Shown here in pieces: positions 2,930 to 21,511 of a stretch of 41,747 nt of DNA (the first letter of the stretch is position 1; every line of letters starts with the position of its first letter). The DNA comes from an uncultured Bacteroidales bacterium. Lineage in GTDB: Bacteria > Bacteroidota > Bacteroidia > Bacteroidales > UBA7960. The translations under genes and the position numbers were made by a program. The notes under the pieces were generated by a model, which saw only the letters and a list, made by a program, of their open reading frames with translations, did not search any database and had not been told where the DNA came from. The DNA is taken from positions 2,236 through 43,982 of the forward strand of contig CAYXIT010000017.1 in NCBI GenBank assembly GCA_964465275.1, in the 5' to 3' direction.

Positions 2930-2938
2930 ACTAATTTC

Positions 2939-3011
2939 ACCGCGGAGACACAGAGAACGCAAAGCAATTAATATCTCCCTGCGAACTCAGCGCACTCTGC
3001 GACTCTGCGGT
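2939..3011. repeat. REP-like element between convergent genes; may act as a bidirectional terminator
   Basis: accgcggag (2939-2947) can pair with ctctgcggt (3003-3011) with one G-U pair, followed by attttt. Inside are three copies of cYctgcgR (2977-2984, 2995-3002, 3003-3010) and acgcaaag (2957-2964). The accgcggag 9-mer recurs at 3512-3520. Confidence 0.45.
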
Positions 3012-3015
3012 ATTT

Positions 3016-3477
3016 TTACTTAAAAACCATATTCTTCTTCACCGTGATCTTTTCACAGTAGTGGCATTTGAGCCTGATATCCTCTTTATCTACCACAGTA
3101 AAGCGGGTAGTGATTGTTTCAATATTGGTGATACAATTGGGATTGAAGCATTTTACAATTCCGGAAATTTTATCAGGCGTTTCCACAATGGTTTTATTTG
3201 CTACCTGAAAGTCCCTGATCTCAATGATACTCGCATGTGGAGCAACAAGAGCGATCTTGTTCAGTTCTTCGGGTTTGAAAAACTTATTGCTTACCTTAAT
3301 GATACCCTTGCTTCCGTATTTCTTACTCTCCAGGTTGGTGCCAAATAACACCATCTGGTCAAACACATCAAGTTTCAACATCTTGATAACCTGAAATACA
3401 GCGGTTGCCGGTATATGGTCTATTACGGTGCCATTTTCAATGGCCGATACTTTCAGTTCTTTTATTTTTTCACTCAT
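3016..3477 (-). CDS. pyrI: aspartate carbamoyltransferase regulatory subunit
   Basis: MSEKIKELKVSAIENGTVIDHIP... with the C-terminal Zn-binding CFNPNC...CHYCEK. It lies directly downstream of pyrB. The ORF stays open to 3534, but the ATG at 3477 matches the usual PyrI N-terminus. Confidence 0.85.
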   Translation of the reverse strand: MSEKIKELKVSAIENGTVIDHIPATAVFQVIKMLKLDVFDQMVLFGTNLESKKYGSKGIIKVSNKFFKPEELNKIALVAPHASIIEIRDFQVANKTIVETPDKISGIVKCFNPNCITNIETITTRFTVVDKEDIRLKCHYCEKITVKKNMVFK

Positions 3478-3536
3478 GGGATGATATATTTTTGATTTAT
3501 GTTTTTTTTTAACCGCGGAGTTGCTAAACCCCAAAC

Positions 3537-4445: not shown

Positions 4446-4506
4446 GATTTCTGTGTTATAAATTGTAATTATATTGATAATTAAGAATTTGCACTAACAA
4501 ATGGCC

Positions 4507-4533
4507 AAAAAAAAGGCGGCTGATAAAGCCGCC
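4507..4533 (-). terminator. rho-independent terminator of the 4544-5899 gene
   Basis: Perfect 7-bp stem ggcggct (4515-4521) / agccgcc (4527-4533) with a 5-nt loop. The A8 run at 4507-4514 gives a U-run after the hairpin on the minus strand. It lies 11 nt beyond the stop codon. Confidence 0.75.
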
Positions 4534-4543
4534 CAATGAATAA

Positions 4544-7400: not shown

Positions 7401-9194
7401 TCATTTTCTTTTTCTTCGTGTCTTGGTGGCTTTTTTTTCATTCGTGGCAAAAAAATACCCCTTCTGCTGTCTTTTCGCTTTATCATCACGAACAACGAAA
7501 ATTCGCTTCCCGGTGTAGGGATCAATGCCGGTATAATACATTGTAGTTGCCAGGGTCATGGGTGTAGGAGTAAATTCCTGCACCTGTTCGGGGGAGTACC
7601 CAAGTTTACTGAGCAAACGTGACAGGTCTTTCATATCACTTTCCATTGTGCCGGGATGGCCTGAAATAAAATAGGGAACCAATTGCCAGGGCAGGTTCTC
7701 TTTCCGGCAAAGGTTACGAAATTCTTCATGGAATTTTTCAAAATTGCTGAAAGAGGGTTTACGCATAATATTCAGCACTTTCGTGGATGTATGTTCGGGT
7801 GCCACTTTTAGTCTGCCTGAAACATGGCTGCGGATGAGTTTGCGGATGTAAGGTTTCAGAGCATAATCTCGGTTTTGCTGTTCGGTTTTTCCCAGCAACA
7901 TATCATAACGCACTCCACTGCCGATAGTAATCTTTTTGATGCCCTGAATTTTTTCGGCCTTCTCATACAACTGCAGAAGGGGATTATGATCAAAGTTGAG
8001 ATTTTTACACGTATTCGGGAAAATGCATGAAGGCCTTTTGCACTTTCGGCAGATCTCCTTATCAATGCCTTCCATGCGATACATATTAGCAGACGGACCG
8101 CCAAGGTCAGTGATATGACCCTTGAAGCCCGGCAATTGCGATATTTTCTCCACTTCCTTTAAAACAGACTCTTCACTTCTGCTCACTACAAATTTTCCCT
8201 GGTGCATATTGATTGCACAAAAACTGCAACCGCCAAAGCAACCCCGGTGAATATTAACTGAATGTTTTATCATTTCCCAGGCTGGTACAGGTGGCTTTTT
8301 ATCATAGTGCGGATGGGGCTTTCGTGCATAGGCTAATTCATAAGGCTCATCAGCATCTTTCCCATCCGGGATCGGGAAAGGTGGATTTACCACTATAACC
8401 TGATCATCTACCCTTTGCAACAGCCGCGGTGCTTCAATGGTGTTTGAGACTTCCTCAATCATCCGGAAAGCACTGGCAAAAGTTGTTTTATCAGCCATGC
8501 AATCATCATGAGACGGTAATTCCCTTTCTGATATATTCTTCAAAGGGGGAAGATCCTTTTGGTGCGGCCACAAAAAGCCCGTTTGAGGAATATTGTGCAG
8601 CGATGTAAGTGGCACCCCCTTTTTCATGAGAGAAATGATCATTTTCCATGCCTGCTCTCCCATACCGTAAAGCAACAGATCGGCTCCGCTTTCGGTAAGA
8701 ATGGATGGCTTAACTTTATCCTGCCAGTAATCATAATGAGTAAACCGGCGCATGGATGCCTCAACTCCGCCCAAAACCACAGGAACCTCGGGATATAGTT
8801 TTTTAAGGATTTGAGTATAAACGACTGATGCGTAGTCAGGCCGGTATCCCGGTCGCCCTCCCGGGGTATAGGCATCATCGCTGCGGCGGCGGCGCAAAGC
8901 TGTATAGTGATTTACCATAGAGTCCATGCTTCCTGCTGTAACTCCGAAAAAGTACCTGGGTACACCCAGTTTTTTGAAATCGCGCAGATCATCGCGCCAG
9001 TTGGGCTGCGGCAATATGGCAACGCGCATCCCCAGCTTTTCTGCCATACGACCCATAATTGCAGCACCAAAGGAAGGGTGATCAATATAGGCATCGCCGG
9101 TAACAATAATGATATCGGGTTGATCCCAACTTAACAATTCTATTTCATTGCGGCTTACAGGTAAAAAAGGAAGGGCAGCGTTTTCTGTTTTCAT
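7401..9194 (-). CDS. ygiQ: YgiQ-family (UPF0313) radical SAM protein
   Basis: 597 aa. The radical-SAM cluster motif appears as CFGGCSFC. The N-terminus LPVSRNEIELLSWDQPDIIIVTGDAYIDHPSFG is typical of YgiQ, and the tail is Lys/Arg-rich. Confidence 0.85.
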   Translation of the reverse strand: MKTENAALPFLPVSRNEIELLSWDQPDIIIVTGDAYIDHPSFGAAIMGRMAEKLGMRVAILPQPNWRDDLRDFKKLGVPRYFFGVTAGSMDSMVNHYTALRRRRSDDAYTPGGRPGYRPDYASVVYTQILKKLYPEVPVVLGGVEASMRRFTHYDYWQDKVKPSILTESGADLLLYGMGEQAWKMIISLMKKGVPLTSLHNIPQTGFLWPHQKDLPPLKNISERELPSHDDCMADKTTFASAFRMIEEVSNTIEAPRLLQRVDDQVIVVNPPFPIPDGKDADEPYELAYARKPHPHYDKKPPVPAWEMIKHSVNIHRGCFGGCSFCAINMHQGKFVVSRSEESVLKEVEKISQLPGFKGHITDLGGPSANMYRMEGIDKEICRKCKRPSCIFPNTCKNLNFDHNPLLQLYEKAEKIQGIKKITIGSGVRYDMLLGKTEQQNRDYALKPYIRKLIRSHVSGRLKVAPEHTSTKVLNIMRKPSFSNFEKFHEEFRNLCRKENLPWQLVPYFISGHPGTMESDMKDLSRLLSKLGYSPEQVQEFTPTPMTLATTMYYTGIDPYTGKRIFVVRDDKAKRQQKGYFFATNEKKATKTRRKRK

Positions 9195-9304
9195 GAATTG
9201 AATGTTGCCGGGTTTGCTGCAAAATTATACAAGAATTAACAATTGCCGTGGAAAAAGGAATAATGCAGCGGCAATATTTGGGAAAATAATTAAGCGGGAT
9301 TAAT

Positions 9305-9802
9305 TCAACGCCACCAGTGCAATATGCCCAGAGCAATTATACCCAGTACAAGCATTACAATAATGGTAATAATTACTTTTCGACTACGTTTTAAAAGACG
9401 GTTCTCTCTTTTTATATGATTCTCAAAACTGATGCGGCGTAAAATATTACGAATACGCTCAACTGCGCCTTCTGATTTTACCACATAATCATAAGCTCCG
9501 AGTCTGATGGTTTGTGTGGCAACCTCAAGTTTATCAACAGAGGTAAGAAATACAACTTGTACATCATCATCCTGCCTTTTTATTTCTTTAAGAACATCCA
9601 TGCCATCTTTCTTGTCTTCTCCCAAAAGGTAATCAAGTAAAATAACGTCCGGCTTCAGGTGCATATGCTTAATACATTGCTCTCCGCTGGAAAACATACG
9701 TATGTTCATATAATTTCTTTTCTCAAGACTATGGCTCAGAACCTTGGCATAGGCTTCATCATCCTCCACAATAAAAATCAGTGTATAGTCAGGCTTATTC
9801 AT
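9305..9802 (-). CDS. orphan response-regulator receiver domain with a C-terminal transmembrane helix and no output domain
   Basis: Acidic pocket IFIVEDDE, putative phospho-acceptor Asp in DVILLDYLL, then FLTSV and YDYVVK. The protein ends in RKVIITIIVMLVLGIIALGILHWWR, a hydrophobic helix. Confidence 0.8.
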   Translation of the reverse strand: MNKPDYTLIFIVEDDEAYAKVLSHSLEKRNYMNIRMFSSGEQCIKHMHLKPDVILLDYLLGEDKKDGMDVLKEIKRQDDDVQVVFLTSVDKLEVATQTIRLGAYDYVVKSEGAVERIRNILRRISFENHIKRENRLLKRSRKVIITIIVMLVLGIIALGILHWWR

Positions 9803-10078
9803 ACACCCTTTTTAAATGATACTTTATATACGTTAACGAATTTAATACATTTTTTTAATGATATTTGGAATTAAAAAATAAAAACTTAACTTGCAGCCCG
9901 AAAACCAGAAATACATCCTTTCATCCCGATCCGAAAACAGCAAAAAAGTATTATATGAAATTTTTATGCAGACTGAATAAAAATAAGAGCATATATGTAC
10001 TGATTAACAGATTTTTACCTTTTTATTTAACCTGATTTTAAAAACAGGCAGATTCTTCTTCAATCCGCTTCGTATTTA

Positions 10079-10086
10079 TATATTTG
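10079..10086 (+). promoter_or_regulatory. candidate -7 promoter element (TATATTTG) for the cytochrome/sulfur operon
   Basis: Perfect TAnnTTTG match 97 nt upstream of the ATG at 10184, inside a 381-bp AT-rich divergent intergenic region. No convincing -33 TTTG was found. Confidence 0.3.
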
Positions 10087-10183
10087 CCTAATTAGATATG
10101 TTGGCAATATTTCATTGTATATGCATATAACAATCAATTAAATACCAACAGCTTAACCCTATCAGCAATATAATTTTAATTGT

Positions 10184-11761
10184 ATGAAGAATACCGTAAC
10201 ATTTATTCTTTCGGTTGTTGTACCCCTGGTGATTATTACTGTTGTATTACGGGATGCATCGCAGGACAACAAACTTCTGGCTGAATTGAAAGAAGAATAC
10301 AGCGAGCCGCACATTCCCAGTGTTGATCACAGCAAGCATGAGGTATTGCAACGTGATTTCGACAATCCCCATGAAATCACAGCCACATGTCTATCATGCC
10401 ATACCGAGCGTGGCGAAGAATTGCTCAACAGCTTTCATTTCACATGGGAAAGGGAAGATTTTATTGAGGGCAGAGGAGTAACATACCTTGGAAAGAAAAA
10501 CCTGTTAAATAACTTCTGCACAGGTATTTTCTCCAATGAATCTACCTGTAACCGCTGCCACGCAGGATATGGATGGGAAGATATGAGTTTTGATTTTACC
10601 AACCAGTACAATGTGGATTGCCTGGTTTGTCATGACAATACCGGTACCTATGAAAAACTAAGGGGTGGAGCGGGCTATCCCGAACCCAACCAGGATTTTC
10701 AAACCATTGTGCAAAATGTTGGAAGACCTACGAAAAGCAATTGCGGATATTGTCACTTCCACGGAGGCGGAGGTAATAACGTAAAGCACGGCGACCTTGA
10801 AGAAGCCCTGCTTACTGCTTCGCGCCAGGTAGATGTGCATATGGGCGTAGACGGTGGAAATATGGACTGTGTAGATTGCCATACAGCTACCAATCATAAG
10901 ATGCTTGGAAGATACTATGGTGTATCATCATCCGATACGCGGCGTGCAACCTGCGAGCAATGCCATACTGCAGTACCCCACATTGATAATATGCTCAATA
11001 CACATGTTGAAAAAATTGCCTGTCAAACCTGCCATATACCGGAATATGCCAAAGTTAATGCTACCAAAATGTACTGGGACTGGTCAACTGCCGGTGAACT
11101 GGAAGACGGAAGAGCTTTTGAACTTTACGATGAACAGGGTAACATCATTTATCAATCCATTAAAGGTGATGCTACCTGGCAAACCAATGTGGAACCCGAA
11201 TACCTCTGGTTTAACGGCACAGCTGATCACTTCCTTTTATCGGATAAGGTTGATACGACAGCAGCTTTTCTAAAGATCAATACACTTTTGGGAAATGCTG
11301 CCGATCCCAGGTCGCGTATTTACCCTGTTAAGGTACACCGTGGCCGCCAACCTTACGATCCTGTGCATCTTTCTATTTTACAGGCCAAACTCTGGGATCG
11401 TGAAGAAGGTAAAGGAGCACTCTGGCTCGACCTTGACTGGGAAAGAGCTCTGATTGAAGGAATGAAATACCTTGACAGACCTTACAGCGGGCAGTGGGAT
11501 TTCGTTGATACCGAGATGTACCTTCCGGTAAATCATATGGTTTCACCTGCCAGTGAAGCATTGCAATGCCAGGACTGTCATTCGCGTGAAAACGGACGTA
11601 TGCAGTTTGTTGAAGGAACTTACATACCGGGCAAAACTTCAAAGGCTGCAATCGACAATTTAGGTGTAGTGCTCATCATACTTTCATTTTTGGGTGTACT
11701 AACCCATGCTGTCATAAGATTTATTTCCTCAAAAAAACTGAAAGATTCAACTTCTGATTAA
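10184..11761 (+). CDS. octaheme c-type cytochrome, tetrathionate reductase (Otr) family, with N- and C-terminal hydrophobic helices
   Basis: Eight CXXCH motifs: CLSCH, CNRCH, CLVCH, CGYCH, CVDCH, CEQCH, CQTCH, CQDCH. Otr-like signatures are NNFCTGIFSNESTCNRCHAGYGW, CLVCHDNTGTY and CHFHGGGGNNVKHGDLE. N-terminal helix is FILSVVVPLVIITVVL; C-terminal helix is LGVVLIILSFLGVLTHAVIRFI, followed by KKLK. Confidence 0.85.
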   Translation: MKNTVTFILSVVVPLVIITVVLRDASQDNKLLAELKEEYSEPHIPSVDHSKHEVLQRDFDNPHEITATCLSCHTERGEELLNSFHFTWEREDFIEGRGVTYLGKKNLLNNFCTGIFSNESTCNRCHAGYGWEDMSFDFTNQYNVDCLVCHDNTGTYEKLRGGAGYPEPNQDFQTIVQNVGRPTKSNCGYCHFHGGGGNNVKHGDLEEALLTASRQVDVHMGVDGGNMDCVDCHTATNHKMLGRYYGVSSSDTRRATCEQCHTAVPHIDNMLNTHVEKIACQTCHIPEYAKVNATKMYWDWSTAGELEDGRAFELYDEQGNIIYQSIKGDATWQTNVEPEYLWFNGTADHFLLSDKVDTTAAFLKINTLLGNAADPRSRIYPVKVHRGRQPYDPVHLSILQAKLWDREEGKGALWLDLDWERALIEGMKYLDRPYSGQWDFVDTEMYLPVNHMVSPASEALQCQDCHSRENGRMQFVEGTYIPGKTSKAAIDNLGVVLIILSFLGVLTHAVIRFISSKKLKDSTSD

Positions 11762-11771
11762 TTTAACAGCC

Positions 11772-12503
11772 ATGGCAAAAAAAGAAAAAGTATATATATA
11801 TAAATCTTACGAAAGATTCTGGCACTGGACCCAGGCTTTTCTTGTGTTTTTTCTTGCATTAACCGGCTTTGAAGTGCATGGTTCCTTTACCTTCTTTGGA
11901 TTTGAAGATGCCGTTGACCTCCATAACAAGGCAGCCTGGGCATTTATCATTCTTACCATATTTACCATCTTCTGGCATTTTACCACAGGTGAATGGAAAC
12001 AATACATGCCCACTACAGAAAACCTGAGGGCGCAGGCAGAGTATTATATTTTTGGTATTTTCCGTAATGCTCCCCATCCTACACGTAAAACTGTACTCAG
12101 CAAACTTAATCCCCTGCAAAGATTGGTTTATCTTTCTTTGAAAATACTGGTGTTTCCGGTTATGATAGCCAGTGGACTGGCTTATATGTATTACCGGTTT
12201 TTCGGCCAGGGAGAAGTAAAACAACTGGGAATTGAAAGCCTGGAAAGAGTTGCCCTGGCACATACCATCGGGGCATATATTCTTATTGCTTTTGTTATTG
12301 TACATTTATATTTGATTACTACAGGGCATACGCTTACATCAAACCTGAAAGCGATGATTACGGGGTGGGAAGAACTGGAATCAGATGAGGGTGAAGTTCC
12401 TGAATCAGAAACATCTAAAGATCCTGTCGGAGAAAGAATAGATAAACCTGGTGATACTTCAAAAGTTAAACCAGATAGCTATGATGATAAAACGGAAATT
12501 TAA
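11772..12503 (+). CDS. membrane cytochrome b subunit (Ni/Fe-hydrogenase/thiosulfate-reductase b-type cytochrome family)
   Basis: About four TM helices with conserved His positions (ERFWHWTQAFLVFF, DLHNKAAW, LAHTIGAYILIAFVIVHLY). It starts 10 nt after the cytochrome c stop and has an acidic C-terminal tail. Confidence 0.75.
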   Translation: MAKKEKVYIYKSYERFWHWTQAFLVFFLALTGFEVHGSFTFFGFEDAVDLHNKAAWAFIILTIFTIFWHFTTGEWKQYMPTTENLRAQAEYYIFGIFRNAPHPTRKTVLSKLNPLQRLVYLSLKILVFPVMIASGLAYMYYRFFGQGEVKQLGIESLERVALAHTIGAYILIAFVIVHLYLITTGHTLTSNLKAMITGWEELESDEGEVPESETSKDPVGERIDKPGDTSKVKPDSYDDKTEI

Positions 12504-12519
12504 ACCAACTCACAAAAAC

Positions 12520-13767
12520 ATGAAAAGGTTTACAATCTTTACTGCATTGCTGGCAATATCCTTAGCAGCCGGCGCACAACTCTCACTTAATGCAGATATT
12601 AGCCCGCGTGCTGAACTCAGGCATGGATACAGAACCCTTCCCGGGCCCAATGATGAGGCAGCAGGTCATATAAACCAAAGAACCCGTCTGGGACTTGGTT
12701 ATGATGTTGAGAATTTTCGCCTGCATATTTCATTTCAGGATGTAAGAGTATGGGGGCAGGATCCTTTGCTTACAAACATCCCATCTCTGTCTGTTCATGA
12801 AGCATGGGCTGAGATGATGTTTAACAACAATCTTTCCCTGAAGATTGGCCGTCAGGAATTGAAATACGATAACCAGCGTTTTCTTTCTTTCAACGACTGG
12901 CAGGTATATGGGCGGAAGCATGATCTGGCTCTGCTGAAATTCAAATCCGATATATGGGAGTTACACGTTGCTTCAGCTTTCAACCAGGAATGGTCTGCTT
13001 ACACCCAACTTTTCGGAACTGATTATGATATTCCCAGTTATAAACTCATGAATTTTGTCTGGTATAACACCCGTCTTTCCGAAACAGCAAAACTATCGCT
13101 GCTTGCCCTGTTTGACAGTTATGAAAATCCGGGAAACAGTGAGCAATTAAATACAAGAGCTACGTGGTCAGCATATCTGAATATGGATATTGATGCTGTT
13201 AATCTTGTTTTTAACCCGGCCTATCAGCACGGAAAAAACCGTTTCGGCAATGGTATAAGAGCGTTTTATTTCAGACTTGAAGGAAGCATGGGTGTTGCTG
13301 ACAATGTAAGATCAACCCTGGGGATGGAACTTTTTTCAGGAAATGATTACACTGACCTTTCTGATGATACAAATCGTGCATTTGATCCATTATATGGTGC
13401 CGGGCATGCCAATGCCGGTTTTATGGATTACTTCACAAATATACCCGTGAATACTGCCGGTGCCGGTTTGGTGAATCCTTACCTGAAAAACCGCATTCGT
13501 CTGAACCCACGCACCGCGTTTAATGCTGATCTGCATTTTTTCTTCCTGCAAAACAATTACGTTCAGAACAACGAAACCATCAATAAATACCTGGGTACCG
13601 AAATTGACCTTACACTCAACTACAGGTTTAATGATTTTACAAATATAATCGGTGGATTTTCAACAATGTTCGGGTCAGAATCCATGGAAATAATAAAAGG
13701 GGGCAGCAAGGATGAGTTTGCTTACTTCATGTATGTAATGATGAGAATAAGGCCCAGGTTCTTATAA
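12520..13767 (+). CDS. outer-membrane porin, alginate-export-like beta-barrel
   Basis: The start was moved to the ATG at 12520, which gives signal peptide MKRFTIFTALLAISLAAGAQ. The track ORF start at 12451 would overlap the cytochrome b gene. It has beta-barrel-like alternating segments and ends in an aromatic-containing motif (MRIRPRFL). The family assignment is recalled, not verified. Confidence 0.65.
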   Translation: MKRFTIFTALLAISLAAGAQLSLNADISPRAELRHGYRTLPGPNDEAAGHINQRTRLGLGYDVENFRLHISFQDVRVWGQDPLLTNIPSLSVHEAWAEMMFNNNLSLKIGRQELKYDNQRFLSFNDWQVYGRKHDLALLKFKSDIWELHVASAFNQEWSAYTQLFGTDYDIPSYKLMNFVWYNTRLSETAKLSLLALFDSYENPGNSEQLNTRATWSAYLNMDIDAVNLVFNPAYQHGKNRFGNGIRAFYFRLEGSMGVADNVRSTLGMELFSGNDYTDLSDDTNRAFDPLYGAGHANAGFMDYFTNIPVNTAGAGLVNPYLKNRIRLNPRTAFNADLHFFFLQNNYVQNNETINKYLGTEIDLTLNYRFNDFTNIIGGFSTMFGSESMEIIKGGSKDEFAYFMYVMMRIRPRFL

Positions 13768-13806
13768 CCAGGAAATACAATTCAAACCAAATAAAAATAT
13801 TAAACT

Positions 13807-14892
13807 ATGAAACGTATACATTTTTTTCGTCTGGCATTATTGCTTCTCCTGATCCCGGTATTGCTGGTTTCCTGTTCAGAAAGACAAGCCCAAACCGAAC
13901 AGGAAAGTGAAATAAACGAAGTAGAAATCCTTTTGCAATATCTTGAGGAGAACGGAAATATTGTAAATGAACCTTCCATTCCTTTTTTTGTAAATGCCGA
14001 AGAGGTTCACAACAACATGAACGGATCCAACTATCATGTTGTGGATGTAAGGTCACCACGTGAATTCAAACGCGGTCATATTGAAAATGCCGTGAATGTG
14101 CAACCCGAAAATATCCTGGATTATTTTGAGAACAGAATTGAACCCAACAGCTTTGAAAAAATTGTTATTGTTTGTAACAACTCTATGCTTTCGGGTTATG
14201 TAACAGCAATTTTAAGAATGCTGGGTTACAATAATACCTTTAACATGCGTTTTGGCCTGAGTTCATGGCACGATGATATTGCACGCCGTGCATGGTTTGC
14301 GAATATTTCCAGTGATCTGGTGGGCAGGCTTGAAACCACACCCCATCCCAAAAATGATCCCGGCAGTCTGCCGGTAATTAATACCGGCAAGACCAGCGGA
14401 TACGATATCCTGAGAGAACGGGCCCTGGAAGCACTAAATATCAACTGGGATGATGTAAGCATCAATTATCTTGATATTATTGAGGAGGCAGAGAACTATT
14501 ATGTAATAAATTACTGGCCTCAGGCATTATATGATCAGGGACACCTGCCGGGAGCCATTCAATACAATCCCAAGAAATCATTTCACAGTGAAGAGGATAT
14601 TTTTACCCTACCTGTCGATCAACCTTTGGTGGTATATTGTTTTACAGGTCAAAATGCAGCCTATGCAAGTGCATTCCTTTCTCTGATGGGGTATGATTTC
14701 AGAAGTCTTGATTATGGTGCCAACAGCTTTATTCACGAAACCATGATCAATACCCAACCTGCTGGCAGGGCTTTTTCAGAGATTCATGTAAAAAATTACC
14801 CCCTGGTAAGGGACGGGCTCCTTCAACCTGCAGATCCCGCAGCTCAACCTGAAGAGAAAGAGGAGGTGGTTACGGCGCAGGGAGGATGCTAG
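13807..14892 (+). CDS. lipoprotein with tandem rhodanese domains and a C-terminal -AQGGC tail
   Basis: Lipobox LLVSC. Two rhodanese modules: HVVDVRSPREFKRGHIENAVNV...IVIVCNNSMLS and ...QGHLPGAIQY...VVYCFTGQNAAYA. A Pro/Glu-rich linker LLQPADPAAQPEEKEEVVT precedes the terminal AQGGC. Confidence 0.8.
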   Translation: MKRIHFFRLALLLLLIPVLLVSCSERQAQTEQESEINEVEILLQYLEENGNIVNEPSIPFFVNAEEVHNNMNGSNYHVVDVRSPREFKRGHIENAVNVQPENILDYFENRIEPNSFEKIVIVCNNSMLSGYVTAILRMLGYNNTFNMRFGLSSWHDDIARRAWFANISSDLVGRLETTPHPKNDPGSLPVINTGKTSGYDILRERALEALNINWDDVSINYLDIIEEAENYYVINYWPQALYDQGHLPGAIQYNPKKSFHSEEDIFTLPVDQPLVVYCFTGQNAAYASAFLSLMGYDFRSLDYGANSFIHETMINTQPAGRAFSEIHVKNYPLVRDGLLQPADPAAQPEEKEEVVTAQGGC

Positions 14893-14903
14893 GGAAGTAG
14901 AAT

Positions 14904-15118
14904 GGTTATTGGGTTAGTAAGTTATTAGGGTTTTAGTTTAATGAGTAGTAAAGGATTTAGCTGCAGAGCAGCGACAATATTTGTAATCATTTTCATTGCA
15001 CTAAAGTACTCAATGGATCTATTGCCTATTTGAAAAAAGCCAAAGAAGAAAACACTATAAAGAAAACCTAAATAACCCATTAACCCAATAACTCAATAAC
15101 CTAATAACTCAATAACCC
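14904..15118. repeat. inverted arrays of an 8-mer (AATAACYY) flanking about 140 nt; candidate long hairpin or MITE-like element
   Basis: The right arm has six tandem 8-mers at 15071-15118 (aataaccc attaaccc aataactc aataacct aataactc aataaccc), ending 6 nt before the ATG at 15125. The left arm, 14904-14932 (ggttatt gggttagt aagttatt agggtt), is the imperfect reverse complement. An inner 5-bp hairpin gctgc-aga-gcagc lies at 14961-14973. Confidence 0.7.
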
Positions 15119-15124
15119 ATACAT

Positions 15125-15679
15125 ATGCAAAATAAACCAACCCCAAACCGAGCCCCTGGCGAGCTCAGCGAAGCTAAACCCTTTATGAACCCATACCTGG
15201 CAGGTTTTCTGCTGGGACTGGTTTTACTGGCATCATTTGTTATAGTGGGTCGTGGCCTGGGTGCCAGTGGCGCCGCAAAGGATGTAATGGTAGCAGGAGT
15301 AATGAACGCAGCACCTGAATATGTTCAGGAGAAACCCTTCTATGAGCCGTATCTTGCAGCCGAAGAAAGCCCGATACGCTCCTGGCTGGTTTATCTGGCC
15401 ATTGGCGTGATTGTTGGCGGCTTTGTTAGCGGTGCCTCATCAAATCGTTTAGGATTTAAAATGGAACGCGGACCGCGCATCAATGCTCCTACCCGGGCAA
15501 TTTTTGCCCTTGCAGGCGGATTATTGTTCGGACTGGGTGCCCAGTTCGGCCGGGGCTGCACAAGTGGTGCGGCATTAAGCGGAATGGCGGTACTTTCTAC
15601 CGGCGGCATCCTTACCATAATGATGATATTTGGCAGCGGATACCTGGTCGCTTACTTTTTCAGGAGGTTGTGGATATAG
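15125..15679 (+). CDS. YeeE/YedE-family sulfur-compound transport protein, first half-channel
   Basis: About four hydrophobic segments with family motifs VGRGLGASGA and GRGCTSGAALSG. This second motif holds the only Cys in the protein. Confidence 0.8.
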   Translation: MQNKPTPNRAPGELSEAKPFMNPYLAGFLLGLVLLASFVIVGRGLGASGAAKDVMVAGVMNAAPEYVQEKPFYEPYLAAEESPIRSWLVYLAIGVIVGGFVSGASSNRLGFKMERGPRINAPTRAIFALAGGLLFGLGAQFGRGCTSGAALSGMAVLSTGGILTIMMIFGSGYLVAYFFRRLWI

Positions 15680-15680
15680 C

Positions 15681-15769
15681 GGAAGGCATGAAAAAAATGG
15701 GGTATCGAAATAAATCAAAATTTCGAAATTCGAAATTCGAAATTTAAACCCATGAATCCGAATGCCTCC
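15681..15769. repeat. 7-bp tandem repeat (TCGAAAT x3 plus one extra copy) enclosed by an imperfect inverted repeat
   Basis: tcgaaat occurs at 15723-15729, 15730-15736 and 15737-15743, with another copy at 15705-15711. The flanks can pair: ggaaggcat (15681-15689) with atgcctcc (15762-15769), and atggg (15697-15701) with cccat (15749-15753). Confidence 0.65.
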
Positions 15770-15817
15770 ATCATACTTAGATATTTCAGCAAAAAATAAT
15801 ATAAAACAAACAAACAT

Positions 15818-17047
15818 ATGGCACCTTTTATCCCCGAAGGATTAGTAAATCCCCAACTGAGTCTGTTCTTTGCCCTGGTACTGGGTATTGGTTTCGGTTA
15901 TGCGCTTGAACAGGCCGGTTTTTCATCATCACGTAAGCTGGCCGGTGTATTTTACGGCTATGACTTTGTTGTATTGCGTGTGTTTTTCACTGCAGGTATT
16001 ACAGCCATGATCGGACTGCTATTTCTCAGCTTTATGGGTTGGATTGATATGAGCCTTGTATATATTAACCCGCTTTATGTATGGTCGGCAATAATAGGCG
16101 GAGCCATTATGGGAGTCGGTTTTATACTGGGTGGTTATTGCCCCGGCACCAGTATTGTAGCTGCTACTGTGGGCAAAATTGATGCAATGCTTTTTCTGGC
16201 CGGCTCTGTAATTGGCATTTTCCTTTTCGCTCATTTTTACAGCATATTTGAACCCCTGCATATGGGGTATTTTGAAGGAAATCCATTTATCTATGAAACT
16301 TTTGGAATATCAAGGGCGTGGTTCGGATTCATTATGGTTATGATGGCAGTAATTGCATTTGCCGTAACCCAGCGTATTGAAGACAGGGTTAACAATACAC
16401 CTCCTGCTGTTATTGAGCAGCGCCCGTCATATATAATGCCCGGAATGTTGCTTATCATAGCTATTTTTGCGTTCCTTTTCCTTCCCGAGCAAAGAAAAAG
16501 CAATGCACGTGAAATACCGCCAGATCAATTGCATAGTATGCTCCAGGATGATAAGCGTTTTGTGGATGCTGAAGAGGCAGCGTACAAAATAATCAACGAA
16601 GACCGCAACTTCATTCTTATTGATGTGCGTGAACCCGAAGAGTTTGAAAGATTCTCACTCCCCGGTTCCGTCAATATTACCAAAGATGAAATATTGGGTC
16701 GCAGATACCGTGATTTCTTCAGTGATGCTCCACCTCACAGCAAAAGGGTATTCTATGGTTTTGGTGAGAGTGCTGCAGATCTGGCATGGACAGTGGCTGC
16801 ACGGGCAGGATTTGAAAATATATTTGTGCTGCAGGGCGGATTGAACGGAATGTTTGAGACCCTGTTCAATGGCAACGTGAAACCCGAAGATCATTTAAGT
16901 CTTGATGAAGAATTTGAAACAAGGTTCAGGGCCGAAGCAAGACGATTATTCCTTGAAGGGGAAGCCGTTCCAACTGAACCACAAACACCCGTGCCTATAC
17001 GCACAGTAATTGAATTAGAAACTCCTGGCGGAAGAGGAGGATGTTAA
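15818..17047 (+). CDS. YeeE/YedE second half-channel fused to a rhodanese-like domain lacking the active-site Cys, with a C-terminal -GRGGC tail
   Basis: The N-terminal part (about 225 aa) has about six hydrophobic helices and the motif GFILGGYCPGTS. The C-terminal rhodanese fold reads ILIDVREPEEFERFSLPGSVNI...RVFYGFGESAADLAW...VLQGGLNGM, with Gly where the catalytic Cys normally sits. A Pro-rich linker follows, and the protein ends PGGRGGC. It has only two Cys in total. Confidence 0.8.
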   Translation: MAPFIPEGLVNPQLSLFFALVLGIGFGYALEQAGFSSSRKLAGVFYGYDFVVLRVFFTAGITAMIGLLFLSFMGWIDMSLVYINPLYVWSAIIGGAIMGVGFILGGYCPGTSIVAATVGKIDAMLFLAGSVIGIFLFAHFYSIFEPLHMGYFEGNPFIYETFGISRAWFGFIMVMMAVIAFAVTQRIEDRVNNTPPAVIEQRPSYIMPGMLLIIAIFAFLFLPEQRKSNAREIPPDQLHSMLQDDKRFVDAEEAAYKIINEDRNFILIDVREPEEFERFSLPGSVNITKDEILGRRYRDFFSDAPPHSKRVFYGFGESAADLAWTVAARAGFENIFVLQGGLNGMFETLFNGNVKPEDHLSLDEEFETRFRAEARRLFLEGEAVPTEPQTPVPIRTVIELETPGGRGGC

Positions 17048-17066
17048 ACAACAAAATGATGATATT

Positions 17067-17690
17067 ATGAACTTCAATAAAAATCTAAACAACATCAGTA
17101 TACTGTTTTTCAGTTTTGTTGCCATCATTGTGGTGATCAATCTTTTTACCACAAAAAACTACGGCAGATCAAACGATGAGGTGGTAAGGCTTCTGGATAC
17201 CCATGAATATATGCTTGACTATTATGAACTGCGTAATGCAATATCACAACAGGCTGACAATTACTTATTTATTGATCTGCGAACTGAAACAGAATACGAG
17301 TCAGGTCATATACCCGGAGCAATTAACATTCCCTTTGATCAGTTGCTCGAGAGCAGGAATATAAAAACTGTCAAAAGATCAGGCGATCAAATACCAGTAT
17401 TGTATGCCGGATCAGAATCAAAAGCACAAACTGCCCGTATGTTGCTTCTGGCAAAAGGTCTGGATGCCGGCATCAGGGTAATGGGTGGCAACTACAACAC
17501 AGCTGTGGAGTTTGCCATTGAAGATTTTAAGCCTGCCTTTGCAGCCTATAAAGATGAAAAAGCCAGGTTTGACTACCGCAGATTCATGCGACCCTCCCCT
17601 ACCGGCCAACCTGCTAAAAAACGAGATCAACCGGCAGGTATTATTCCTGCAGTAAATCAACAAACACTCTCTGCTCAGGGTGGTTGCTGA
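17067..17690 (+). CDS. membrane-anchored rhodanese-like protein lacking the active-site Cys, with a C-terminal -AQGGC tail
   Basis: N-terminal anchor ISILFFSFVAIIVVINLF. Rhodanese fold LFIDLRTETEYESGHIPGAINIPF...VLYAGSESKAQTA, with Ala at the catalytic position. A Pro/Gln-rich linker follows, and the protein ends SAQGGC. The terminal Cys is its only cysteine. Confidence 0.8.
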   Translation: MNFNKNLNNISILFFSFVAIIVVINLFTTKNYGRSNDEVVRLLDTHEYMLDYYELRNAISQQADNYLFIDLRTETEYESGHIPGAINIPFDQLLESRNIKTVKRSGDQIPVLYAGSESKAQTARMLLLAKGLDAGIRVMGGNYNTAVEFAIEDFKPAFAAYKDEKARFDYRRFMRPSPTGQPAKKRDQPAGIIPAVNQQTLSAQGGC

Positions 17691-17699
17691 TAATTAGTT

Positions 17700-17745
17700 G
17701 GGGTTACCGGTTAAGAAATTCTCTTAGGGTAACCCCGTTTTATTT
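17700..17745 (+). terminator. rho-independent terminator closing the sulfur/cytochrome operon
   Basis: Perfect 9-bp stem ggggttacc (17700-17708) / ggtaacccc (17728-17736). An inner 5-bp stem pairs taaga with tctta. The hairpin is followed by gttttattt and starts 10 nt after the stop codon. Confidence 0.8.
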
Positions 17746-17840
17746 AGTTGATATTATTGCCGGTTTATTAATGGCTTCATTGGATTGTGATTTTGCCATT
17801 TTTTTCTTATTTTTAGGAGACAAACGTGAAACTATTTTCG

Positions 17841-20327
17841 ATGGCAATGAATTTCCAGAACAATCCTCAATTACAACTGGCTCACGATTTTGTTGAGCAA
17901 ACCGGCATGAATATTTTTCTTACCGGCCGGGCAGGCACAGGTAAAACCACTTTTCTGCAATACATCAGATCAAATTCTTTCAAACGTTCTGTGGTGGTTG
18001 CACCCACAGGTGTTGCCGCTATCAATGCAGGCGGAGTAACAATACACTCTTTTTTCCAGCTCCCTTTCGGTCCTATTTTACCTGAAGACTCAGAATTCAG
18101 GAGGCAACAGGAAGATCATCGCTTCCATAAACTCAACAAAGAAAAGATCAATATCATCCGCAGTCTCGATCTGCTTATCATTGATGAGATAAGCATGGTG
18201 CGGGCCGATCTTCTGGACGGAATTGATCAGGTGCTGCGACGCTATCGCAACCGGTATAAACCTTTTGGTGGATTACAACTCCTGCTCATCGGCGACCTTC
18301 AGCAATTGGCACCGGTGGTAAAAGATGATGATACTGCCCTGTTGGGAAAATATTACGACAACTTCTTTTTCTTTGGTAGCAAAGCATTACAACAAACAAA
18401 ATACATCAGCATTGAACTTCAGCAAATATACAGGCAAACCGATAAGGAATTCATAGATTTGCTGAACAGAGTGCGAAACAATCAACTTGATCAATATTAC
18501 CTTCAGAAACTTAACCGCCAATACAGGCCCGGCTTTATGCCGGATGAAGATGAAGGATACATAACTCTTACCACCCATAATCAACAGGCCGCACAGATCA
18601 ACCAGACAAGATTAAGATCCTTACGCAGTAGTGTAAGATTCTTTAAAGCATATATTGATGGTGACTTCCCTGAAATGGCCTATCCTACAGAAGAAAGCCT
18701 GAGTCTCAAAACCGGTGCCCAGGTTATGTTTGTAAAGAACGACCCTTCTCCTGAAAAACTTTTCTATAACGGCAAGATTGGAGTAGTGGAAAGTATGGAA
18801 GATGATATGATTTATGTTAAATGCCCCGGAGAGGATTCACTGATAGCCGTAACACCTCTCATGTGGGAAAACCGTCGCTACAAACTAGACCCCGACACCA
18901 AAGAGATACGCGAAAACGTGATCGGTACCTTTACCCAATATCCTTTAAAACTGGCCTGGGCCATTACCATACATAAAAGCCAGGGATTAACCTTTGAGAA
19001 AGCTATAATTGATGCGCAGGCAGCCTTTGCACACGGCCAGGTATATGTAGCACTGAGCCGCTGCAAAACACTCGAAGGACTTGTGCTGAGTTCACGAATC
19101 TCAGGTCAGGCCATAAAAAGCGACATGAGCGTAAAAGATTTTTCTTTTAATATTAAGCAAAATCAGCCTGACGAACAAGTACTTTCCGGTGCACGACTGC
19201 AATTCCAGCATGAGCTGCTCGATGAACTGTTTGACTTCGATCCTGTTCAGCGTCGTCTGAATTATTTGCAAAAGCTCGTCAAAGAAAACATTGGCTCCAT
19301 TGATGAAGGAATCGCTGATATGCTGAAACCTCTCAGTAAAGAACTGGAGGACCTGGCAGGCGTGGGGTCAAAGTTCATGGTGGAGATCAGCAAACATGTA
19401 AAAAATTACGGGCAGATAGAAAATAATATAGCGTTGCAGGATCGTATCAGGAAGGCTTGCAGCTATTTCATTCCCCGGCTCGAAAAGGAAGTGATAAACA
19501 TACTTGAAAATGTAGTGATTGACAGCGATAACAAGCAGGTAAAGAAATCCCTTACCGAAGCTTATGATCGTCTTTTTCATGAGGGAGAGCTGAAACTTGC
19601 CTGCCTGAATGCCTGCACCGAAGGCTTTAAAACCGCAAACTACCTGGAAGTGAGAGCCAAAGCATCCATTGAAAAGACCCGCAGCCGTGAACGAAAACCC
19701 GGCAAATTTGCTGCAGTTTCTGATGTTTCGAACCATCCGCAGCTTCTTGAACAACTGCGCAACTGGCGCAACAGGGCTGCCGTTGAACTTGGCATTCCCA
19801 TTTTCATGATCCTGCCGCGCAAATCCATGATTTCCATCACCAACGAGTTGCCTGCATCTCTCAAGGCACTGAAAGCCATCTATGGCATGGGAAAGAAAAA
19901 GACTGAACAGTTTGGCCCCGATATCATTTCCATCGTGCAGGAATACTGTGCCAACAATGATCTGCAGCCCCAATATGATGCACCCGATACCGGCAAGCCC
20001 GAAAAAAAGCCCAAAGAGAGAAAAAAACCTTCGGCTGAGACCAGCCTTGAGCTTTACAGGCAGGGCAAAACCGTCGGGGAGATTGCAAAGGAAAGAGAAC
20101 TGGCCAAAAGCACCATTGAAGGACATCTCGCCAATTATATTGCTAACGGCGAGATCCCGGTGGAAGATATTGTAACCCCTGAAAAGATACAACCCCTTAT
20201 GGACTATTTTTCAAAATCGGAAGATCACAGCTTGAGCCTTGCACGACAAACCCTGGGAAATGAGTATTCATACCAGGAGATCAGATGTGTTCTGAGCCAC
20301 TACAGGTATAAAAATCAGCTCTTATAA
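17841..20327 (+). CDS. Pif1/RecD-like superfamily-1 helicase with a C-terminal HRDC-like region and a helix-turn-helix region
   Basis: Walker A is LTGRAGTGKTT and Walker B is LLIIDEISMV. AITIHKSQGLTF and VALSRC are typical of Pif1/RecD. The HRDC-like segment is LLEQLRNWRNRAAVELGIPIFMILPRKSM...IYGMGKKKTEQFG, and the HTH-like segment is LYRQGKTVGEIAKERELAKSTIEGHL. The start was set at the first ATG (17841); the track start at 17826 is GTG. Confidence 0.8.
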   Translation: MAMNFQNNPQLQLAHDFVEQTGMNIFLTGRAGTGKTTFLQYIRSNSFKRSVVVAPTGVAAINAGGVTIHSFFQLPFGPILPEDSEFRRQQEDHRFHKLNKEKINIIRSLDLLIIDEISMVRADLLDGIDQVLRRYRNRYKPFGGLQLLLIGDLQQLAPVVKDDDTALLGKYYDNFFFFGSKALQQTKYISIELQQIYRQTDKEFIDLLNRVRNNQLDQYYLQKLNRQYRPGFMPDEDEGYITLTTHNQQAAQINQTRLRSLRSSVRFFKAYIDGDFPEMAYPTEESLSLKTGAQVMFVKNDPSPEKLFYNGKIGVVESMEDDMIYVKCPGEDSLIAVTPLMWENRRYKLDPDTKEIRENVIGTFTQYPLKLAWAITIHKSQGLTFEKAIIDAQAAFAHGQVYVALSRCKTLEGLVLSSRISGQAIKSDMSVKDFSFNIKQNQPDEQVLSGARLQFQHELLDELFDFDPVQRRLNYLQKLVKENIGSIDEGIADMLKPLSKELEDLAGVGSKFMVEISKHVKNYGQIENNIALQDRIRKACSYFIPRLEKEVINILENVVIDSDNKQVKKSLTEAYDRLFHEGELKLACLNACTEGFKTANYLEVRAKASIEKTRSRERKPGKFAAVSDVSNHPQLLEQLRNWRNRAAVELGIPIFMILPRKSMISITNELPASLKALKAIYGMGKKKTEQFGPDIISIVQEYCANNDLQPQYDAPDTGKPEKKPKERKKPSAETSLELYRQGKTVGEIAKERELAKSTIEGHLANYIANGEIPVEDIVTPEKIQPLMDYFSKSEDHSLSLARQTLGNEYSYQEIRCVLSHYRYKNQLL

Positions 20328-20347: not shown

Positions 20348-21511
20348 TCACATTTCCATATACAATTCCAGCACATTGACCAATTGATCAATTTCCCTGA
20401 AGTTGTTGAAAAAATTGCATGCTATTCTGATATTTCCAGCCCTTAGAGAAGTAACAATATTATGTTTACGTAAAAAATCCACAGCAGATGCATTATCTGC
20501 TTCCCTTAAACTGATAAGGATAATAGCAGAACGATGGCGGCGTTCTTTAACCGGAGATATCACATCTACAGGTAGTTCACTGAGTTGCTCCAACAGATAA
20601 CCGGTCAGTTGCTCTATCCTTTCCCTGATCTTTTCGCGCCCGATTTCTTTAAAAAATTCAATTCCGGTATCGAGCCCCAATAAGGCCTGAAAATTCATAG
20701 TACCGAAATTATATTGTTCAGCAGTATCAAAAGCCTTGTATTTCACGTTTTTTTGGGTGGGAATAAAATCATCCTCCGGAGGTTCTACTGATAACCATCC
20801 GGCCATTGCACCGGGGTATTTTTTCCTGAAATCTTCAGAAGTAAAGAACAGCGTTCCGGCCACAGCACATAACCCCCATTTATGGAATGAAACCGTCATT
20901 ACATCAATATGCATTTCCTTTACATCAACCTCATAAACCGGAAAAGCCTGTGTTGCATTCACGATAAATAACAAGCCCTTTTCTTTCAAAGCTTTACCAA
21001 GTTTCTCCATTTCTAACATAAAACCGGTTGAATATTGCACATAACTGCAAACCACTCCCAGCGTTTTGTCATCAACGGCATCAAGGATCTTTTCTGCGGA
21101 ATAAATCCCCTCTTCGGGCTCAACAAATTTCATAGGAATTCCCTGGAACTCAAATGGGATATGCGATGCCGGAAACTCATCCTGCAGAGAAACCAGGTTA
21201 AAATCTTCCTTCGCAGCCGACTTTTTCAATGCTGCTGCCACAAAGCTGAAGGCTGTGGATGAATTGTGGGCAAAAACAACATTGTCCCGGACAGTATTGA
21301 TCATCTCAGCCAGTTTTCCTCTCAGAACATTGGTACGTTCCAGGTCATCAAGGAAGTACATATCACCAAACCGGTTCAGCTTCTCATATGCATTTACAAC
21401 AGTTTTGAAAACCCGCGTAGGGATCGGACTCATTCCGGCACTGTGAAAATACGCCAGATTTTTTGTTACCGGGAACTCTTCACGTATTTCATCCCAGAAT
21501 TTTTCATCCAT
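20348..21511 (-). CDS. class V aminotransferase-fold PLP-dependent enzyme
   Basis: 387 aa. The PLP-lysine context is MTVSFHKWG, and the C-terminal motif is RAGNIRIACNFFNNFREID. I did not find a SufS/NifS-type catalytic Cys loop. Confidence 0.7.
   Translation of the reverse strand: MDEKFWDEIREEFPVTKNLAYFHSAGMSPIPTRVFKTVVNAYEKLNRFGDMYFLDDLERTNVLRGKLAEMINTVRDNVVFAHNSSTAFSFVAAALKKSAAKEDFNLVSLQDEFPASHIPFEFQGIPMKFVEPEEGIYSAEKILDAVDDKTLGVVCSYVQYSTGFMLEMEKLGKALKEKGLLFIVNATQAFPVYEVDVKEMHIDVMTVSFHKWGLCAVAGTLFFTSEDFRKKYPGAMAGWLSVEPPEDDFIPTQKNVKYKAFDTAEQYNFGTMNFQALLGLDTGIEFFKEIGREKIRERIEQLTGYLLEQLSELPVDVISPVKERRHRSAIILISLREADNASAVDFLRKHNIVTSLRAGNIRIACNFFNNFREIDQLVNVLELYMEM

Follow-up and report, generated by a model that had tools for sequence, protein, structure and literature searches.

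What task does Otr, the octahaem c-type cytochrome whose structure and in vitro activities have been available since 2004 and whose physiological role is not settled, perform when its gene stands among genes for a sulfur channel and rhodaneses? The locus that raises this question lies in a 41,747-nt stretch of DNA, hereafter the window, of an uncultured Bacteroidales bacterium (contig CAYXIT010000017.1). Seven co-oriented genes on the + strand span positions 10184-17690 there, in the places given by an earlier sequence-only reading of the same DNA, and we consider that the operon probably encodes a quinol-dependent, periplasm-facing reductase of an inorganic sulfur compound with S-S bonds, together with a sulfur-trafficking cassette of its own. 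The genes are the following:

10184-11761, + strand: Otr-family octahaem c-type cytochrome (TIGR04315)
11772-12503, + strand: membrane dihaem cytochrome b (Ni_hydr_CYTB)
12520-13767, + strand: outer-membrane beta-barrel of the Alginate_exp family (Pfam profile), here called the porin
13807-14892, + strand: tandem-rhodanese lipoprotein (two Rhodanese domains)
15125-15679, + strand: YeeA, C-terminal half of a YeeE channel (Sulf_transp)
15818-17047, + strand: YeeB_Rhd, N-terminal YeeE half fused to a rhodanese (Sulf_transp and Rhodanese)
17067-17690, + strand: RHDa, an anchored rhodanese-fold protein (one Rhodanese domain)

All five profile assignments made in the sequence-only reading (Rhodanese, Sulf_transp, Alginate_exp, Ni_hydr_CYTB and the octahaem tetrathionate-reductase family) hold, and none of the porin, the lipoprotein, YeeA, YeeB_Rhd and RHDa passed the threshold of any NCBIfam model.

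The evidence that carries this interpretation comes first from the neighbourhood of the genes in other genomes. A scan of one genome per species returned at least 557 loci with a relative of the channel-rhodanese fusion, of which the best 80 were retrieved. These 80 all derive from metagenome-assembled genomes, mostly of Bacteroidales, Lentimicrobiaceae, Rikenellaceae and Ignavibacteriota with LCP-89 in addition, and for many of them the source habitat was soda-lake sediment. DNA upstream of YeeA was in view in 69 loci; the Otr-cytochrome b pair stood immediately upstream, in the same order and on the same strand, in 59 of them, a three-subunit (ABC) molybdoenzyme replaced it in eight (L057, L060, L063, L066, L067, L075, L077 and L080), and neither reductase was found upstream in the remaining two. 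The conservation of the neighbourhood, proposed earlier as a check on the operon, is thus strong across all five of these groups. The minimal conserved core is Otr-cytochrome b-YeeA-YeeB_Rhd, which is all that the Ignavibacteriota hold and which reaches LCP-89, and clustering of all flanking open reading frames (ORFs) revealed no other conserved neighbours.

The replacing module consists of a molybdopterin subunit with a twin-arginine translocation signal, an NrfC/TtrB-like iron-sulfur subunit and an NrfD-like membrane subunit, none of which has a counterpart of its type in the window. Its molybdopterin subunit matched PhsA best, at 472 bits, and TtrA at 26 bits only. In three Lentimicrobiaceae loci (L038, L041 and L044) both modules occur in tandem, each with its own channel and its own protein ending in Gly-Gly-Cys (GGC). 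Since Otr-cytochrome b and the PhsA/Psr-like ABC alternate upstream of it, the channel-GGC-rhodanese cassette is evidently a module serving periplasmic sulfur-compound reductases, and the sulfur role suggested for the operon in the sequence-only reading thereby receives independent support. Moreover, because the shared cassette also serves an enzyme of the polysulfide/thiosulfate-reductase branch, the substrate of this Otr clade is likely an inorganic sulfur compound and not a nitrogen oxide.

The opposite reading, that Otr is a nitrite or hydroxylamine reductase or detoxifier and that its adjacency to sulfur-transport genes is functionally meaningless, has to be weighed at this point. The Otr of Shewanella reportedly reduces both compounds in vitro, and tetrathionate as well, according to the 2007 work of Atkinson and colleagues, and the authors of the Ch128a genome kept this reading open. 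However, an adjacency retained with tight spacing in 59 of 69 loci across phyla, and a cassette that swaps onto a sulfur molybdoenzyme, render it extremely improbable.

Several of the retrieved loci show arrangements of their own. In L038 (98-11835), and also in L041 and L044, the Psr/Phs-like ABC genes with YeeA, YeeB and a transmembrane rhodanese ending GGCS lie directly upstream of a complete Otr cluster. The molybdoenzyme cassette of L057 is flanked by the stretches 11870-13550 and 2374-5073 (- strand); 3' of the cassette are genes for an Fnr/Crp regulator, a TusE/DsrC-family protein (71.6 bits, above cut-off) and a DsrE2-like protein, and upstream is an 899-aa fusion (234 bits, below cut-off) that resembles two proteins of the Geobacter selenite/tellurite operon, namely the cytochrome b ExtP and the cytochrome c ExtM. 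In L016 (3973-11717) and L018 no reductase is in view and lipoprotein-YeeA-YeeB_Rhd-RHDa are present, preceded by genes for a TetR-like protein, a membrane protein of 729 aa resembling a transporter and a DUF1302 outer-membrane protein; two genes of this variant are apparently frameshifted near their 3' ends, with the GGC codons of the lipoprotein readable past the stop in another frame.

The reductase itself is a clear member of its family. Otr scored 562.2 bits against TIGR04315 (cut-off 375), covering positions 1-440 of the 440 in the profile, and aligned with the Shewanella Otr (PDB 1SP3) at an E value of 5e-124 with approximately 50% identity over 417 residues. It contains eight CxxCH haem sites, and its segment GKKNLLNNFC (GKKNxxNNFC) aligns to 1SP3 residues 55-64. 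Residues K104 and C112 of this segment, invariant among 56 orthologues, are the equivalents of the haem 2 ligand Lys56 and of Cys64, as reported in the 2004 study of Mowat and colleagues. With a score above the family cut-off and both residues invariant, the protein falls in the Otr clade, as had been proposed, and not in the nitrite/hydroxylamine octahaem clade; its tetrathionate reductase activity is predicted from the family. The N-terminus carries a hydrophobic segment, and the C-terminus a transmembrane helix followed by KKLK, the helix being kept in 54 of 55 orthologues.

The cytochrome b gene lies directly 3' of otr in every Otr-type locus listed. Its product scored 98.6 bits against Ni_hydr_CYTB (cut-off 30.1) and is related to PhsC/HydC/FdnI, the best NCBIfam match being the cytochrome b subunit of thiosulfate reductase, PhsC (103 bits, under its cut-off). 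Six histidines (His18, 51, 69, 102, 164 and 178) are invariant in 59 orthologues, and we presume that this protein is the quinol dehydrogenase for Otr.

The conserved core continues with the split channel. YeeA covers positions 176-308 of the Sulf_transp profile PF04143 and corresponds to the C-terminal half of YeeE (helices H8-H13), and YeeB covers positions 10-161 and corresponds to the N-terminal half (H1-H7), so that the gene order is C-half then N-half in the style of PmpA then PmpB, which are the C-terminal and N-terminal halves of YeeE, respectively (PMC11582611). YeeA aligned to residues 236-330 of 8K1R/6LEO with its Cys145 at the periplasm-facing Cys293 of the Spirochaeta thermophila protein (StYeeE), and its K/R-rich termini fit an N-in/C-in topology. 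In YeeB, C108 in IIGGAIMGVGFILGGYC, invariant in 116 sequences, matches IIGGFVFGLGMVLAGGC(91), i.e., StYeeE Cys91, judged by eye. Cys91 and Cys293 are the two cysteines indispensable to StYeeE, and full-length YeeE is a thiosulfate importer (PMC7449682). The split YedE1E2, in contrast, takes in zero-valent sulfur or polysulfide and has one essential Cys per half, while full-length YedE3 did not take up zero-valent sulfur (PMC10812762). YeeB departs from the small four-helix halves of PmpAB and YedE1E2 and runs from the N-half, which includes an H7-like helix, through an extra transmembrane helix, a rhodanese domain and a further helix to a tail of approximately 29 residues ending GGC (codons 17036-17044).

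Four rhodanese domains, all above the cut-off of Pfam PF00581, are present in three proteins. The lipoprotein has a catalytic Cys in both domains (C278 in 53/56 and C123 in 46/56 orthologues) and a lipobox Cys kept in 56/56, and is placed outside the cytoplasm; its tail of approximately 36 residues ends GGC (codons 14881-14889). RHDa is anchored by one N-terminal transmembrane helix, and its rhodanese fold is followed by a conserved K-x-EKARFDYxRF helix and a tail of approximately 33 residues ending GGC (codons 17679-17687). The rhodanese loops of YeeB_Rhd (YGFGESA) and RHDa (YAGSESK) are without the catalytic Cys. The sequence-only reading had spoken of GGC carriers, and the motif is indeed on all three proteins and widely kept; the missing catalytic Cys in two of them had been overlooked.

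A GGC C-terminus on all three rhodanese proteins is far past chance, and it is retained among relatives. Database homologues end in GGC in 116/120 cases for the fusion, 32/34 for the anchored protein and 99/120 for the lipoprotein, and in the genomic loci the same holds for 52/57 lipoprotein genes and 60/69 anchored genes, with GGCS in six further anchored genes; the remaining exceptions among lipoprotein, anchored and fusion genes are mostly truncated, split or frameshifted. A search of the RHDa profile against 1.84 billion cluster representatives (clustered at 50% identity) gave 114 proteins with a length near 200 residues among its 150 best matches, and 110 of these 114 divergent representatives carried GGC within the last six residues, 61 of the 110 having no Cys outside the tail. 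The only invariant Cys residues are C108 and C409 in YeeB_Rhd and C207 in RHDa, so that outside the membrane both proteins have no invariant Cys but that of the tail, and in each case the terminal Cys ends a stretch of 29-36 poorly conserved residues. Because a loop Cys was lost and an invariant terminal Cys on a long tether was gained, these tails suggest covalent carriage of sulfur on a Cys arm, as on SoxY. In lucinid symbionts otr has the genes of a divergent carrier with a swinging arm, SoxY-S3/SoxZ, beside it (PMC11237559), an independent hint that Otr enzymes may cooperate with Cys-arm carriers.

An AlphaFold2 model of YeeB_Rhd has six long helices and a rhodanese domain with a predicted local distance difference test (pLDDT) score of about 90, followed by an unstructured tail with pLDDT 45-60; the membrane half, modeled without its partner, is of low confidence. 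A fold search with the model retrieved generic rhodaneses alone, and a profile search of the PDB, dominated by the rhodanese domain, reached no YeeE structures. In the structure of StYeeE the N-terminus is outside, four helices and two re-entrant loops follow, and H7 crosses inward (PMC7449682). YeeB_Rhd has all these N-half elements and one further helix before the rhodanese domain. Over 116 YeeB_Rhd sequences the mean number of Lys and Arg residues was 0.0 in the N-terminus, 2.0 in the LA loop and H2 (residues 31-50), 0.03 in the loop between H3 and H4 (75-87), 1.0 in the LB loop and H5 (107-123), 1.0 in the loop between H6 and H7 (142-166) and 3.4 in the loop between H7 and the extra helix (185-205). 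This alternation in the StYeeE register would therefore put the loop after H7 inside and the fused rhodanese outside. In loci in which the fusion is split, YeeB ends KRVKKVEY, and the separate rhodanese opens in the manner of a signal anchor, a short basic stretch leading into a hydrophobic helix. Because of the lipobox, the loop charges of YeeB and the starts of the split versions, we infer that all three GGC tails are periplasmic. A cytoplasmic position of the fused rhodanese, like that of YeeD, was considered and dropped in view of the six instead of five membrane helices, the K/R alternation and the signal-anchor-like split starts.

Weak NCBIfam matches link the YeeE halves to the selenium-type YedE, and the rhodaneses to the selenoprotein TsoB and to MnmH. 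The latter matches prompted us to consider a selenocysteine at the tail, a candidate that was rejected, as none of >200 orthologous genes had a GG end continued by an in-frame TGA codon and then another stop; where GGC was not the end, the genes had GGCS or GGCA instead, or were truncated or frameshifted. In a wider selenium reading, the multihaem cytochrome would reduce selenite or tellurite, and the rhodaneses and YedE-like channel would handle selenium, as proposed for ExtH/ExtI and YedE. Besides the weak matches, it can draw on the existence of selenoprotein forms of the Otr, rhodanese and YeeE families (PMC13188914), on the ExtM/ExtP-like cytochrome upstream in L057 and on the turnover of selenite by the Geobacter enzyme MccSep (PMC13510729). 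Nevertheless, all selenium-type matches are far under the family cut-offs, no selD, selA or selenocysteine insertion sequence (SECIS) context was seen, and TGA stands in place of the tail Cys in none of the >200 genes; the partner enzymes are PhsA-like, the neighbors DsrE2- and TusE-like, and the habitats are sulfidic sediments and soda lakes, all of which makes selenium a very unlikely object of this operon.

For the sulfur reductase that we favor, the following mechanism can be proposed. Cytochrome b would oxidize menaquinol and feed the eight haems of Otr. The three GGC tails would operate in the periplasm, one of them held at the mouth of the YeeA/YeeB channel by the extra transmembrane helix, and the terminal Cys on its flexible arm of about 30 residues would be loaded covalently with sulfur; S0, polysulfide or the lipoprotein's catalytic Cys would give a persulfide or polysulfide there, and tetrathionate an S-thiosulfonate. 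Otr would then reduce the adduct or the free anion to sulfide or thiosulfate, and some of the sulfur would be handed to YeeA Cys145 and YeeB Cys108 and thus to the cytoplasm. In this lineage, the porin and lipoprotein pair may carry the substrate across the outer membrane.

As to the substrate, we lean towards polysulfide or sulfane sulfur, for which we see just short of an even chance, ahead of tetrathionate with a smaller though substantial one, the remainder falling to thiosulfate or other compounds. Sulfane sulfur is favored because rhodanese-like carriers serve the polysulfide reductase of Wolinella, because the split YedE1E2 imports zero-valent sulfur or polysulfide (PMC10812762), and because the polysulfide reductase of Geobacter is a multihaem cytochrome (PMC13510729). 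The case for tetrathionate lies in the in vitro activity of the family and its induction in situ, otr being up 36-fold with tetrathionate in sediment microcosms (PMC8528874).

The latter result also serves a simpler explanation, namely plain tetrathionate respiration by Otr-cytochrome b, with YeeA/YeeB importing thiosulfate for assimilation, rhodaneses that cleave or scavenge thiosulfate, and a GGC tail that is no carrier. Family membership with an intact active site, the induction by tetrathionate, the import of thiosulfate by full-length YeeE (PMC7449682) and a minimal core that does without the extra rhodaneses are all in line with it. On the other hand, it leaves unexplained why the same cassette accompanies a PhsA/Psr-like enzyme that scores so poorly as TtrA, and why two rhodaneses lost their catalytic Cys while the Cys at the extreme C-terminus is near-invariant; moreover, the split channel of the YedE1E2 type was the one that took zero-valent sulfur when tested, and full-length YedE3 did not (PMC10812762). 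We therefore judge this explanation unlikely.

The direction of the reaction could also be oxidative, with Otr-cytochrome b as a thiosulfate or sulfane:quinone oxidoreductase that loads the Cys arms as SoxXA loads SoxY and delivers the electrons into the quinone pool. Such chemistry is carried out by TsdA and SoxXA, which are related haem enzymes, the tetrathionate/thiosulfate couple is reversible (PMC13510729), and otr lies beside SoxY-S3/SoxZ in symbionts that oxidize sulfur (PMC11237559). In contrast, the hosts of the present loci are mostly fermentative or anaerobic Bacteroidales and Ignavibacteria, which other authors take to use terminal reductases, the enzyme that stands in for Otr elsewhere is PhsA/Psr-like and thus of the reductase type, and conserved Sox, sHdr or rDsr genes are lacking in the vicinity, so that oxidation is highly improbable here.

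Going beyond the reductive reading itself, the GGC-ended rhodaneses may form a new class of SoxY-like swinging-arm carriers, in which case the substrates of Otr and of the PhsA/Psr-like enzymes would be protein-bound persulfide or thiosulfonate, and the arm would thread sulfur to the YeeE Cys pair in a Cys-to-Cys relay across the inner membrane. This proposal is tentative and we hold it to be doubtful.

Several observations weigh against a reductase with a dedicated sulfur-trafficking cassette, or against single steps of the mechanism. Otr alone does not fix the substrate, because nitrite, hydroxylamine and tetrathionate are all reportedly reduced in vitro. The single-chain AlphaFold2 model docks the tail nowhere and thus gives the arm mechanism no structural support, and the charges of RHDa support its topology only mildly, the N-terminal flank being the more positive one in 59 representatives, the less positive in 36 and equal in 15. 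The import step is weakened because no cytoplasmic acceptor (TusA/YeeD or DsrE) is present in the window or, from the clustering of flanking ORFs, conserved beside Otr-type loci. The porin is missing from most loci, and the two longer internal gaps of the operon would allow separate transcripts.

The porin requires a separate comment, since the sequence-only reading had described a system spanning the cell envelope. The protein scored 38.5 bits against Alginate_exp PF13372 (cut-off 25.2; profile positions 4-363 of 395), and there are no alginate genes near it in the window, so we claim for it the predicted fold family alone. Homologues were found in 7 of the 80 loci, in each of them on one side or the other of the tandem-rhodanese gene and no more than 76 nt away from it. 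By this distribution the porin is an accessory, lineage-specific part paired with the lipoprotein gene, and an envelope-spanning arrangement, though present here, does not belong to the conserved core.

The ends of the operon and its internal spacing were analyzed together with the adjoining elements:

9305-9802, - strand: response regulator with a receiver domain only (REC-only), 165 aa, Response_reg at 75.5 bits, C-terminal transmembrane helix
9803-10183, no strand: divergent intergenic region, 381 nt, AT-rich
14893-15124, no strand: deletion remnant of a cassette between the lipoprotein gene and YeeA, outside the system
17700-17745, + strand: intrinsic terminator closing the operon, a hairpin and then GUUUUAUUU

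The gaps between the seven genes measure 10, 16, 39, 232, 138 and 19 nt in order, which bears out the four tight gaps reported earlier and adds two longer ones. The 16-nt gap presumes that the porin starts at the likely MKRF start at 12520, the mechanical ORF beginning at 12451. The terminator, too, is borne out, by a hairpin of 15 bp at 17700-17736 (-20.1 kcal/mol, z -2.96) that precedes the GUUUUAUUU run and was missed by a simple terminator scanner. Upstream of the operon the sole Bacteroidetes-type -7 motif on the + strand is TATATTTG at 10079-10086, 98 nt before the first ATG, and no + strand TAnnTTTG occurs in the two internal gaps of 232 and 138 nt. This placement would fit a single promoter ahead of otr, for which it is weak evidence because the motif is not enriched in the window, its count there being at chance level. 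A sigma-70 scan for internal promoters likewise gave a chance result (24 found, 24.3 expected), and Rfam had no match in 9000-18200, leader and gaps included (E up to 0.1).

The region delimited in the sequence-only reading started at 9305 and so took in the divergent REC-domain gene and the 381-nt spacer. The regulator, in which Pfam profiles found no output domain, stands divergently beside otr in just three of the other loci, those of the close relatives L002, L005 and L011; it is possibly a local regulator and at most a candidate member of the system. No histidine kinase adjoins it.

The 232-nt gap at 14893-15124 is recognizable as the deletion remnant of a small, mobile-looking cassette for a 23S-rRNA-intervening-sequence protein. 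Inverted arms of 8-nt repeats (AATAACCC-like; six matches, 0.65 expected) flank the last approximately 25 codons of a gene. In the corresponding stretch of the closest relative L002 (6466-7056) this gene is intact, and its product matches the 23S rRNA-intervening-sequence protein family PF05635 at 107 bits. Folding of the arms gives a long stem (-47.9 kcal/mol, z -2.9) that could be an RNA processing site inside the transcript. The 138-nt gap between the YeeE halves contains a near-perfect palindrome, AAATTTCGAAATTCGAAATTCGAAATTT, at 15718-15745, and the sequence of this gap is not kept in L002.

Elsewhere in the window, 33281-35671 encodes a CcmF-like cytochrome c biogenesis protein, which fits a host that matures multihaem cytochromes, and 20348-21511 (- strand) a class-V aminotransferase with a cysteine-desulfurase-like fold. 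Two ORFs of 561 and 536 aa (28119-29804 and 29990-31600), without a Pfam match, sit between a subtilase sorted by the type IX secretion system (25152-28022) and a DUF5723 protein (31687-33132).

Metagenomic surveys have counted otr as a stand-alone marker of tetrathionate metabolism (PMC8528874 among them), and the papers naming the present genomes discuss otr alone or with cytochrome b561. That Otr is so regularly accompanied by a sulfur channel and by carriers with Cys arms, and is swappable with a Psr/Phs-type enzyme, is genomic evidence of a sulfur role for this Otr clade, and the uncharacterized family of channel-rhodanese fusions is large, as the number of loci given above illustrates. 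If our reading is true, a capacity to respire or scavenge sulfur would belong to the abundant fermentative members of Bacteroidales, Lentimicrobiaceae and Ignavibacteria that live in sulfidic sediments, digesters and soda lakes.

Among known systems, the Shewanella oneidensis Otr is the closest to the reductase, with which it shares the family, about half of the residues, the eight haem motifs and the haem 2 Lys with its neighboring Cys. The 1SP3 chain has no counterpart of the C-terminal transmembrane helix, however, and set beside this protein chain only, the present operons always have a cytochrome b, and nearly always the YeeA/YeeB-rhodanese cassette, 3' of otr. In Wolinella succinogenes the rhodanese-like Sud carries sulfur to polysulfide reductase. 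PsrABC and Sud thus resemble our operon as a periplasm-facing, quinol-dependent sulfur reductase with a rhodanese-fold carrier, and Psr/Phs-like ABC genes precede the cassette in 8 to 11 related loci. In the window, in contrast, the reductase is a multihaem cytochrome with cytochrome b and not a molybdoenzyme, the carriers hold a conserved Cys at the extreme C-terminus and not only in the active-site loop, and the unit includes a split YeeE channel.

ExtH, a rhodanese-like lipoprotein, and the outer-membrane porin ExtI are encoded in the ext cluster of Geobacter, which is not known to have a YeeE channel or GGC tails. The likeness of extHIJKL/MccSep (ExtKL) of Geobacter sulfurreducens to our operon lies in a multihaem c-type cytochrome that acts as polysulfide reductase and in the central part of active-site Cys chemistry (PMC13510729). 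MccSep is nevertheless a pentahaem selenoprotein with a His/Cys-ligated haem and has no sequence relationship to Otr, which no ExtK or ExtL model matched.

PmpAB/YedE1E2 and YeeE-YeeD share with the present channel the two halves, C-half then N-half, with one conserved Cys each, and YeeE-YeeD in addition the need for a sulfur-transfer partner protein, the part played there by YeeD. The N-half differs from those of PmpAB/YedE1E2 in bearing H7, the extra transmembrane helix and a presumably periplasmic rhodanese, and the partner, unlike YeeD, would be outside and not cytoplasmic, there being no TusA/YeeD gene. The swinging arm of SoxY is said, in the 2007 study of Sauve and colleagues, to be the C-terminal GGCGG. 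As in SoxYZ, a Gly-flanked Cys ends a flexible peptide, in front of which lies a short beta-like stretch. In contrast to SoxYZ, the fold is that of a rhodanese and not the SoxY beta-sandwich, no residue follows the Cys, SoxZ, SoxXA and SoxB are absent, and SoxY/SoxZ profiles of Pfam and NCBIfam matched none of the operon proteins, so we regard the resemblance as one of design only.

The nearest published scheme comes from Desulfurivibrio dismutans, in which a porin, periplasmic rhodanese lipoproteins and YeeE/YedE are co-localized and a relay from periplasm to cytoplasm has been proposed beside a periplasmic reductase (PMC12142623). The sequence-only reading had not recognized the combination as a characterized operon, and indeed no description of it or of the GGC motif was found in the full-text literature, a body that leaves most subscription journals outside its coverage; the combination of porin, rhodanese lipoprotein, reductase and YeeE, however, had already been proposed for Psr in that work. 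The clusters of D. dismutans differ in having a PsrABC reductase and in belonging to a disproportionator of the Desulfobacterota with a cytoplasmic Dsr branch, and neither an Otr link nor a GGC tail is reported for them (PMC12142623). In conclusion, the assembly described here appears to differ from the known systems in four respects, namely the pairing of Otr with cytochrome b, the rhodanese fused to the channel on its outer side, the modularity of the cassette, and the GGC-ended carriers.

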